Shown piece by piece: positions 26,624 to 26,737 of a stretch of 64,000 nucleotides of DNA. This DNA comes from an uncultured Acidobacteriota bacterium (GTDB taxonomy: Bacteria; Acidobacteriota; Thermoanaerobaculia; Multivoradales; UBA5704), in assembly GCA_963761805.1 (NCBI GenBank), contig CAVXIV010000014.1, forward strand, positions 33,217-97,216. Reading direction: 5' to 3'. The notes beneath the pieces were generated by a model, which worked only from the letters and a program-made list of their open reading frames with translations, ran no database searches and was not told the origin of the DNA. The position numbers and the translations under genes were made by a program. Numbering within the stretch: position 1 is the first letter of the stretch; every line of letters starts with the position of its first letter.

Positions 26624-26737
26624 AAGTTCAAGGACCTAAAGGACATAAGGGACCTAAACGACATAAACGACTGGCAAGGACATGGGCACTGTCGTCCTTT
26701 GAGTCCTTTAGGTCCCTTATGTCCTTTAGGTCCTTTC
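26624..26737. repeat. palindromic repeat element built from AAGGACNTAAA-like units, filling the kinase/regulator intergenic spacer
   Basis: The left arm aaggacctaaaggacataagggacctaaacgac pairs with the right arm gtcgtcctttgagtcctttaggtcccttatgtcctttaggtcctt. Its GC is about 45% in a 68% GC context. A related copy lies at 54172-54278. Confidence 0.7.

Follow-up and report, generated by a model that had tools for sequence, protein, structure and literature searches.

We analysed 64,000 nucleotides of DNA (the window) from an uncultured Acidobacteriota bacterium of the class Thermoanaerobaculia, contig CAVXIV010000014.1, positions 33,217 to 97,216. The window contains two copies of a palindromic repeat element, each a hairpin with arms formed by tandem arrays of a 9-bp unit. 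Copy 1 lies between the genes of a histidine kinase and a response regulator. Copy 2 is located between two genes of the minus strand, a cation-efflux gene and a fragmented OEP/TolC-like gene. The genes and the parts of the elements are as follows.

25421-26623, plus strand: histidine kinase gene (HisKA_3/HATPase_c), upstream flank of copy 1; stop codon TGA at 26621-26623
26630-26736: copy 1, whole element, 107 nt, guanine plus cytosine (GC) fraction 0.467
26630-26671, plus strand: copy 1, 5' arm, 9-bp tandem units AAGGACCTA / AAGGACATA / AGGGACCTA / AACGACATA / AACGAC
26672-26693, no strand: copy 1, apical region or loop, including a single degenerate unit AAGGACATG
26694-26736, plus strand: copy 1, 3' arm, GTCCTTTGA / GTCCTTTAG / GTCCCTTAT / GTCCTTTAG / GTCCTTT; 90% complementary to the 5' arm
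26750-27400, plus strand: NarL/LuxR-type response regulator gene (Response_reg and GerE), downstream flank of copy 1
53305-54147, minus strand: OEP/TolC-like gene, fragmented; start 29 nt from copy 2
54177-54272: copy 2, whole element, 96 nt, GC 0.448
54177-54218, plus strand: copy 2, 5' arm, AAGAACCTA / AAGGACCCA / GAGGACCTA / AAGGACTCA / AAGGAC
54219-54230, no strand: copy 2, loop
54231-54272, plus strand: copy 2, 3' arm, GTCGTTTTG / GTCCTTTAT / GTCCTTTAG / GTCGTTTAT / GTCCTT
54609-55286, minus strand: cation-efflux (CDF) gene, upstream of copy 2; 336 nt from its stop codon to the element

An earlier note on this DNA had described two hairpins of about 110 bp at these sites, poor in GC compared to their background. 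This agrees with the boundaries given above and with the GC fraction of the whole window, 0.689. The common core of 27 nt reported there, CTGTCGTCCTTTGAGTCCTTTAGGTCC, is indeed an exact match between the copies, and we add that its orientations are opposed (26689-26715 on the plus strand, 54197-54223 on the minus strand). The 11-bp unit had to be corrected. According to Tandem Repeats Finder, the true period in the arms is 9 bp and alternates over 18 bp, and the proposed 11-mer overlaps its neighbour by 2 nt. The arm unit of the window copies has the form NW-AAR-GGAC. With at most one mismatch, the sequence AAGGACNTAAA has 15 matches, every one of them within copy 1 or copy 2, compared to 0.33 in shuffled sequences.

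The arms of copy 1, 42 nt each, are 90% complementary and separated by 22 nt. The corresponding RNA has a folding energy of -68.3 kcal/mol (z = -8.2), with 33 contiguous base pairs and about 45 overall. For copy 2 the energy is -56.9 kcal/mol (z = -5.0). Both placements made by the earlier note are correct: copy 1 lies between the kinase stop codon (26621-26623) and the ribosome-binding site (AGGAG, 26738-26742) and start codon (ATG, 26750) of the regulator, and copy 2 lies upstream of a broken outer membrane protein gene, the OEP/TolC-like gene.

The latter gene is split. Its N-terminal part of 280 amino acids (53305-54147, minus strand) contains OEP repeat 1, and an ORF (open reading frame) of 69 amino acids (52926-53135, minus strand) corresponds to the end of an OEP repeat and is the C-terminal fragment. 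Further downstream are HlyD-like and then AcrB-like genes. The split gene is probably a frameshifted pseudogene heading an RND efflux operon.

Distribution and structure of the repeat family

With a degenerate pattern of three units, to which all arms of the window copies conform, a scan of 185,579 species genomes yielded at least 118 loci, designated below by L and a number. Among the loci listed, arrays of the 9-bp unit occur in at least nine phyla, in genomes with GC content from 31 to 71%. Within the Acidobacteriota they were observed in Thermoanaerobaculia, Holophagales and Blastocatellia. Other groups are Chlamydiota, Hydrogenedentota, Planctomycetota, Verrucomicrobiota, Lentisphaerae, Kiritimatiellia, Chlorobi, Kapaibacteria, Nitrospirales, Desulfobacteraceae and Spirochaetota. 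A few matches in Vibrio and actinomycetes, which have one arm only and are simple tandem repeats, are probably due to chance.

Together with the window, the 118 loci contain 143 detected arrays. Inverted pairs ordered as GGAC arm, loop, GTCC arm account for 66 of them, and the reverse order was observed only five times. The remaining 72 are single arms, some of which are really pairs with long loops. The number of units per arm varies from 3 to 11, with four or five units in 95 of 132 arms. Medians are 23.5 nt for the loop and about 105 nt for the whole element.

The logo of the unit is A82, A97, A/G 78/20, GGAC (the anchor), N, T/A, and it is unchanged among loci with GC content below 50%, 50-62% and above 62%. 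The heptamer AARGGAC is nearly invariant and the remaining two positions are variable. Since the heptamer is retained whatever the base composition or phylum, sequence-specific recognition is implied; a generic need for a hairpin would not yield that. The complementarity of the arms at the variable positions is modest, and hence many copies consist of 7-bp helices divided by 2x2 internal loops. Copy 1 of the window is among the better-paired copies of the family.

Copies from one genome are more similar to each other than copies from different genomes. The longest shared exact strings have a median of 17 nt within a genome and 12 nt between genomes (p = 3e-17), and exact strings of at least 22 nt are shared by 17.6% of within-genome pairs compared to 2.6% of between-genome pairs. 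The nearest relatives of the window copies are copies of the Thermoanaerobaculia metagenome-assembled genome (MAG) SMAG_U1959. In particular, 42 nt of the 3' arm of copy 1 are identical to an arm of L112 from this MAG. The suggestion of the earlier note that the copies belong to a small mobile or REP-like (repetitive extragenic palindromic) family is thus retained in part. This is a repeated palindromic family, and the kinase-regulator copy is a true insertion (see below). However, the status of a genome-specific REP does not hold, as the 9-bp unit is found in at least nine phyla.

In one locus, L085, two arrays are 3.4 kb apart and might have delimited an autonomous transposon. We rejected this candidate: the intervening genes are baeRF and those of L21, L27 and Obg, and thus the pairing of arrays there is coincidental.

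In an Rfam search of the window only tRNA-Leu reaches the gathering threshold. At the element, only long-hairpin miRNA models respond, with at most 44 bits compared to gathering scores of 84-150. In a literature search we found no description of these AARGGAC foldback repeats; the repeat strings retrieve only collagen primers, since GPKGxK codons match. Several ideas based on other systems were dropped for lack of evidence: Shine-Dalgarno or anti-Shine-Dalgarno mimicry by AAAGGA/UCCUUU, the boxA-like GUCCUUUGA, CsrA GGA sponges, Rho-binding YC arrays, integron attC sites and DNA-uptake sequences.

Partner gene

Some arrays adjoin a gene encoding a protein of 186-192 amino acids. Two ORFs located between arrays matched the Pfam family PF05635 (23S rRNA intervening sequence protein; intervening sequence is abbreviated below as IVS) with E = 3e-6 to 2e-5, under the Pfam gathering score. 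In NCBIfam the product is a 'four helix bundle suffix domain-containing protein', with matches to TIGR04258 (60-74 bits) and to TIGR02436 (above cutoff). Searches with phmmer and tblastn identified this gene in eight of the 118 pattern-selected loci (L007, L013, L036, L038, L050, L053, L077, L083), which span six or more phyla. In all eight, arrays directly adjoin the gene. The typical arrangement is a hairpin whose end is 20-45 nt before the start codon, with a further array behind the stop codon. In L038 the ORF is situated between the two arms.

As a test that avoids the ascertainment bias of the pattern, we considered loci fetched by protein identity alone, namely eight distinct loci of the main clade and three of a Prevotella clade. 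Arrays were found beside the gene in 11 of 11. AARGGAC arrays lie at most about 50 nt from the gene in all eight main-clade loci: L199 (Geomonas silvestris), L200, L202 and L204-L208. In the control, 270,803 bp of loci selected by the regulator of the window, there is one hairpin only, that of the orthologue L119 described below. The homologues of the Prevotella clade are distant (40% identity), and in three of three loci their stop codons are immediately followed by arrays with the same 9-bp period and other units, CCTAGGAAN or TTCTAGANN:

L209, 2150-2214: array after a distant homologue, units as above
L210, 2190-2240: array after a distant homologue, units as above
L211, 2226-2307: array after a distant homologue, units as above

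The period is kept and the unit co-varies with the protein, which is the signature expected of specific recognition. Thus the 9-bp foldback family, which is common to many phyla, is tightly linked to the four-helix-bundle-suffix gene, and its unit changes in step with the clade of the protein.

A deletion derivative was observed in L071 (a Holophagales MAG; 7050-7250, minus strand). A hairpin and a leader are followed there by ATG-SEGFLPKHGGYKR fused to GLRERMTRARLEGRRRSG*. Residues ~15-167 of the gene are deleted, so that the N-terminal 14 amino acids are joined to the C-terminal 17. Such a miniaturised cassette demonstrates one way in which forms lacking the ORF can arise.

The protein is highly conserved, with about 70% identity across phyla, mean column identity of 72% and 67 invariant columns in 40 sequences. 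Clustering at 90% identity gives at least 8000 clusters of the protein. With a 50% threshold and E <= 1e-30 the number is 438, and many of the matches listed cover part of the query only. The phage collection has no copy of the gene, and in the plasmid collection the sole match is to a Prevotella replicon of 568 kb. The fetched loci show no reverse transcriptase, template repeat or variable repeat near the genes.

The AlphaFold2 model of the protein is all-helical, with a pLDDT (predicted local distance difference test) score of 86.7. The top PDB folds in Foldseek are the S23-family structures 2RLD and 2GSC and Avd, a protein of diversity-generating retroelements (8UB7_E), with probabilities of 0.94-1.0 and target-normalised TM-scores up to 0.70. 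Sequence searches of PDB with the protein and with the profile produced nothing relevant. In a literature search we found no paper linking TIGR04258 proteins to repeats.

Hairpins adjoining the gene have loops of ~40-160 nt (L013, 1180-1340 and 1990-2100; L199, 2375-2427), compared to the median of ~23 nt in solitary hairpins. The loops of L013 and L199 share a motif, ACTGCGATAA, a putative promoter or binding site. In L204 (3077-3400), three near-identical hairpins follow the gene in tandem, and the stop codon TAA of the gene is within the first unit. This arrangement suggests local amplification.

Kinase-regulator junction

Orthologues of the regulator were collected from a metagenome scan with the regulator protein (94-72% identity). 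The junction is free of the element in L120-L127, L129 and L130, where the regulator identity is 72-89%. In all five junctions that were parsed (L120, L121, L123, L124, L125), the stop codon of the kinase overlaps the start codon of the regulator as ATGA or TGATG, the classic arrangement for translational coupling. Four loci were checked for synteny (L124-L126 and L130); they also match the window upstream of the kinase and thus are syntenic. The window retains a trace of this state, followed by a new leader:

26620-26623, plus strand: relic ATGA, kinase TGA (26621-26623) overlapping the ancestral regulator ATG, the start used in element-free orthologues
26737-26752, plus strand: new regulator leader, ribosome-binding site CAGGAG (AGGAG at 26738-26742) and new ATG at 26750

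The relic ATGA is followed by an insert of about 125 nt, plus the new ribosome-binding site and ATG. Hence the kinase-regulator copy is a derived insertion that has split an ancestral ATGA stop/start overlap. The earlier note had supposed an insertion at this site, and nine element-free junctions of the relatives agree with that.

The closest orthologue, L119 (94% identity), has an element at the same position and the same new leader, ATGCCTGAG. This leader is common to the window and L119 only, among the orthologues compared. It follows that the insertion is older than the split of the two organisms. The element of L119 differs from copy 1 at many positions and retains a folding energy of -65.9 kcal/mol. 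Of the 34 base pairs shared by the two elements, four are changed on both sides, one is changed on one side, and none is broken.

The leader and first codons of the regulator in the window, GTCCTTTCAGGAGCCCGCCC-ATG-CCT-GAA-G, resemble those of four-helix-bundle-suffix genes, for instance GTCCTTTAAAGGAGCTCTCCCC-ATG-CCA-GAA-GGC in L207, encoding MPEGFIP. Judging from this short match of leaders and N-termini (MPE...), the inserted fragment may have supplied the start signals of the regulator.

Translational coupling of the kinase and the regulator would have been lost at this junction, and the regulator would be translated from the new ribosome-binding site and ATG beside the stem. On read-through of the operon, the mRNA would contain a near-perfect duplex of about 45 base pairs, 33 of them contiguous, between the two cistrons. 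Such a duplex could be a good substrate of RNase III, a roadblock or a stabiliser. Cleavage by RNase III, a roadblock effect or a shifted ratio of kinase to regulator are all plausible at the predicted stem. It is also plausible, as the earlier note proposed, that the predicted stem-loop decouples the expression of the two genes, as the ancestral ATGA overlap is destroyed and the stem has 33 contiguous base pairs.

Genomic context of the hairpins

Almost all classifiable hairpins (58 of 59) are intergenic. By orientation of the neighbouring genes, 32 of these are in tandem, 15 in convergent and 11 in divergent contexts. A facing stop codon is at a median distance of 13 nt, compared to 81 nt for a facing start codon. 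In 31 of 66 cases the hairpin begins 1-14 nt past a stop codon, and this becomes 35 of 66 with four ORFs that end within the element at its own TAA.

The flanking genes (66 facing the element with the stop codon and 57 with the start codon) are unrelated ordinary genes by Pfam, e.g. those of RtcB, SelA, GatB, EPSP synthase and MutS. No transposase was observed among the 25 most frequent Pfam families listed for each flanking set (123 genes in total), and none between the arms. A tie to two-component systems was suspected from L099 and L117. It was rejected: kinases and regulators make up only two of the 66 and two of the 57 flanking genes, the pair of the window included.

In tandem contexts, G.U pairs are about equally frequent on the sense and antisense strands (69 and 75), and the folding energies are alike (p = 0.24). 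Thus nothing indicates selection on the sense transcript specifically. A scan for intrinsic terminators found none at copy 1. The full stems of the window copies are followed by TTTCAGG and TTGTCTG, neither of which is a U-tract, so that they lack the form of an intrinsic terminator, in which a U-tract directly adjoins a GC-rich stem. Near copy 2, terminator-like calls are restricted to sub-stems inside the element, behind which comes the T-rich arm. Copies in low-GC genomes carry T4-T9 tails. A canonical terminator, with a GC stem and T5, is present in the same window at 2446-2480.

Other repeats in the window

A second, unrelated foldback-like array is located at 2532-2978. It consists of about ten copies of the 21-bp unit GGAAGCTTCCGGCTTCAACCG followed by about ten approximate reverse complements, with arms at 2528-2707 and 2788-2967 that are 70% complementary. 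It is situated downstream of the canonical terminator, and tRNA-Leu is at 1965-2048. The regions 21247-21392 and 21458-21603 contain 3.5 copies of a 42-bp repeat, each internally palindromic (GGGTGGAGCCCTCCACCC), adjoining a perfect 39-nt inverted repeat (CCTCTCCCGACCCCTCCCTCCCTCCCTCACCGGGAGAGG) around a purine-rich spacer of 68 nt. There is a 60-nt inverted repeat at 63676-63735 and 63825-63884 (83% complementary, 89 nt between the arms) and a 271-nt direct repeat in three copies (55353-55623, 62925-63195 and 63149-63419; 68-86% identical). Finally, a 94-nt inverted match, 82% complementary, connects 46605-46698 and 50344-50437, which are 3.6 kb apart. One of its arms is in the AcrB-like region, and it could be a paralogous gene fragment.

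Possible nature of the elements

The window elements are, in our opinion, ORF-less ('solo') members of the widespread foldback family and relics or derivatives of an IVS-like selfish cassette. We consider this probable, with some reservation. The arrays and the protein together would form one selfish cassette, analogous to the intervening sequences of 23S rRNA with their S23p ORF. The protein, probably an oligomer, would recognise the repeated heptamers. The S23p and Avd relatives are homopentameric and most arms have four or five units, which is suggestive only. Solo hairpins might arise by copying or by deletion of the ORF and might persist just past stop codons, where the harm is least.

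Several points weigh against this. The loci of the genome scan, at least 118, are a sample biased by the pattern, and their gene positions come from a self-trained codon-usage caller (which recovered the kinase and the regulator of the window correctly). The comparison of filled and empty junctions rests on one series of orthologues. No target-site duplication of 2-6 bp, the check proposed in the earlier note, exceeds the shuffled-pair control in 63 elements at offsets 0-6, and the same elements have no target or flanking motif. The 64-kb window contains no four-helix-bundle-suffix gene, and the partner protein has no recognisable nuclease or recombinase motif. The Foldseek E-values are weak, 0.03-0.8. 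Lastly, the complementarity of the variable dinucleotides between the arms is 56.5% compared to 46.6% expected by chance (standard deviation of the null 1.7%). This is a modest excess, and hence the hairpin itself may count for less than the heptamer arrays.

The hairpins might instead be a regulatory or structural RNA of the host, that is, an intercistronic or 3'-end feature of mRNA maintained by selection, such as a terminator, a 3' stabiliser or an RNase III site. The very stable stems of copy 1, copy 2 and L119, the frequent location immediately past stop codons, the compensatory changes between orthologous copies and the replacement of the ancestral ATGA coupling are all consistent with this, as is the stem base, which has AAA on its 5' side and TTT on its 3' side whichever strand is read and resembles a bidirectional terminator. 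However, a feature of mRNA agrees poorly with the balance of G.U pairs and folding energies between the strands, with the missing U-tracts (given the canonical terminator elsewhere in the window), with the 11 of 58 hairpins between divergent genes and with the lack of a match to any Rfam family. Moreover, a generic hairpin leaves both the partner gene and the heptamer, common to many phyla and independent of GC content, unexplained, and we regard a host RNA as rather unlikely. Ancient non-mobile spacers or chance low-complexity sequences would agree with the presence of only two copies in the window. This possibility is refuted by the 15 occurrences of the unit compared to 0.33 expected, by the hundreds of related copies elsewhere and by the orthologues that have no spacer; its probability is negligible.

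One more possibility is that the arrays are binding sites of the four-helix-bundle protein acting as a DNA- or RNA-binding regulator or nucleoid protein. They would then be a regulon, autoregulated at the leader of the protein itself, that evolves in place or by local duplication and is neither selfish nor mobile. Indeed, most loci of the gene have a hairpin 15-50 nt ahead of the start codon, unit and protein clade vary together, and the fixed 9-bp spacing of heptamers with loosely complementary variable positions suggests readout of the sequence. On the other hand, the flanking genes have no common function, the kinase-regulator copy arrived as a block insertion of ~125 nt, exact arms of up to 42 nt are common to unrelated sites and different genomes, and many copies of the gene are truncated or deleted. 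A regulon of this kind is therefore improbable. A conventional miniature inverted-repeat transposable element (MITE), i.e. an insertion-sequence derivative that is not autonomous and depends on a DDE transposase acting in trans, would have inverted termini, small size, multiple copies and insertion polymorphism, all of which are seen here. It should also leave the target-site duplications that are missing in the 63 elements, a transposase is found neither among the commonest families of the 123 flanking genes nor between the arms, and the arms are tandem arrays of variable length, not fixed terminal repeats. We consider a MITE very improbable.

A broader proposal can be made, although tentatively, and we think it somewhat less likely than its opposite. 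TIGR04258 proteins and the clade-specific arrays of 9-bp period may be a previously unrecognised pan-bacterial pairing of a protein and a nucleic acid, and a new class of selfish or mobile elements. A probably pentameric toroid similar to S23p and Avd would read four or five heptamers at 9-bp spacing and would help foldback hairpins to be copied or retained, no conventional transposase being involved. The ORF-less relics after stop codons would then reshape operon junctions, as between the kinase and the regulator.

If this pairing is real, it provides the first functional handle on the S23p '23S rRNA IVS protein' family. If the linkage holds genome-wide, one repeat family is common to very distant phyla and is tied to a 'hypothetical' small protein that is among the most conserved of its kind in metagenomes. 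S23p/Avd-like proteins outside diversity-generating retroelements might then recognise arrays of 9-bp period, and ORF-less and ORF-bearing intervening sequences might be explained as two states of one element. For annotation, the hairpins flag rebuilt operon junctions; here a coupled kinase-regulator pair was split and acquired a new ribosome-binding site and start. RNase III processing and breaks in assemblies are also likely at the hairpins.

Comparison with known systems

Correia/NEMIS, ERIC and RUP elements are bacterial MITEs, inserted between genes, of about 100-150 bp and with long stems in the mRNA. They are co-transcribed with their neighbours, and some are cut by RNase III, altering the expression of the adjacent genes. 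They have fixed terminal inverted repeats and target-site duplications, and none is known to extend beyond one genus. The foldback family has neither fixed termini nor, in 63 elements, target-site duplications, and it is not bound to a genus. Unlike MITEs, for which an autonomous relative encodes the transposase, the foldback arrays have a single recurrent neighbour, the four-helix-bundle-suffix gene, and no transposase-coding relative was found among the families listed for the flanking genes.

The REP/REPIN-RAYT system is similar to the foldback family in several respects: numerous extragenic palindromes after stop codons, higher similarity within than between genomes, a conserved chromosomal partner gene flanked by the repeats, and no target-site duplications. 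However, REPs are single palindromes of 20-40 bp with a GTAG or CGTC head and a species-specific sequence, whereas the foldback element is about 100 nt long and consists of heptamer arrays common to many phyla. No GTAG or CGTC head is visible in the foldback elements. RAYT is an HUH Y1 transposase of the IS200/IS605 type, and the foldback partner is a four-helix bundle; Y1_Tnp was not observed among the 25 most frequent families listed for each flanking set (123 genes). REP, Correia and ERIC sequences are lineage-specific, whereas the foldback family extends over very distant phyla.

The foldback (FB) transposons known from Drosophila and other eukaryotes (see also PMC3169594) are kilobase-sized and linked to a transposase. 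Like the elements considered here, they have long inverted termini made of short tandem repeats in variable number, a variable loop, and mostly ORF-less copies. They are eukaryotic and have no homology with the bacterial foldback family.

The predicted fold of the partner protein is the same four-helix bundle as in Avd (PMC10053308), a pentameric scaffold associated with nucleic acids, and PF05635 is the Avd-like family of diversity-generating retroelements (PMC10053308). Avd does not have the suffix domain.

The closest analogy is provided by the intervening sequences of 23S rRNA. The intervening sequence of Coxiella is described as selfish; RNase III cuts its terminal stem, which is 28 bp long, the loop carries an ORF for S23p, and heptamers are repeated in tandem, in variable number, upstream of this ORF (PMC4990558). 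The S23p homologue Xcc0516 is a homopentameric toroid (PMC4990558). The intervening sequences of Coxiella and Leptospira and the foldback elements share a long stem formed by complementary ends, an optional ORF of an S23p four-helix-bundle protein (PF05635), short tandem repeats upstream of the ORF start, and ORF-less versions. Intervening sequences occupy helices of 23S rRNA, and their stems are substrates of RNase III, which cuts them out of the RNA; the foldback stems may be RNase III substrates as well. The foldback copies are situated between protein-coding genes, near stop codons, and not in rRNA, of which the window has none; their stems themselves are arrays of the 9-bp unit; their partner belongs to a distinct and far more conserved 'suffix' subfamily, TIGR04258; and, among the sampled loci, ORF-less hairpins outnumber ORF-bearing foldback loci.

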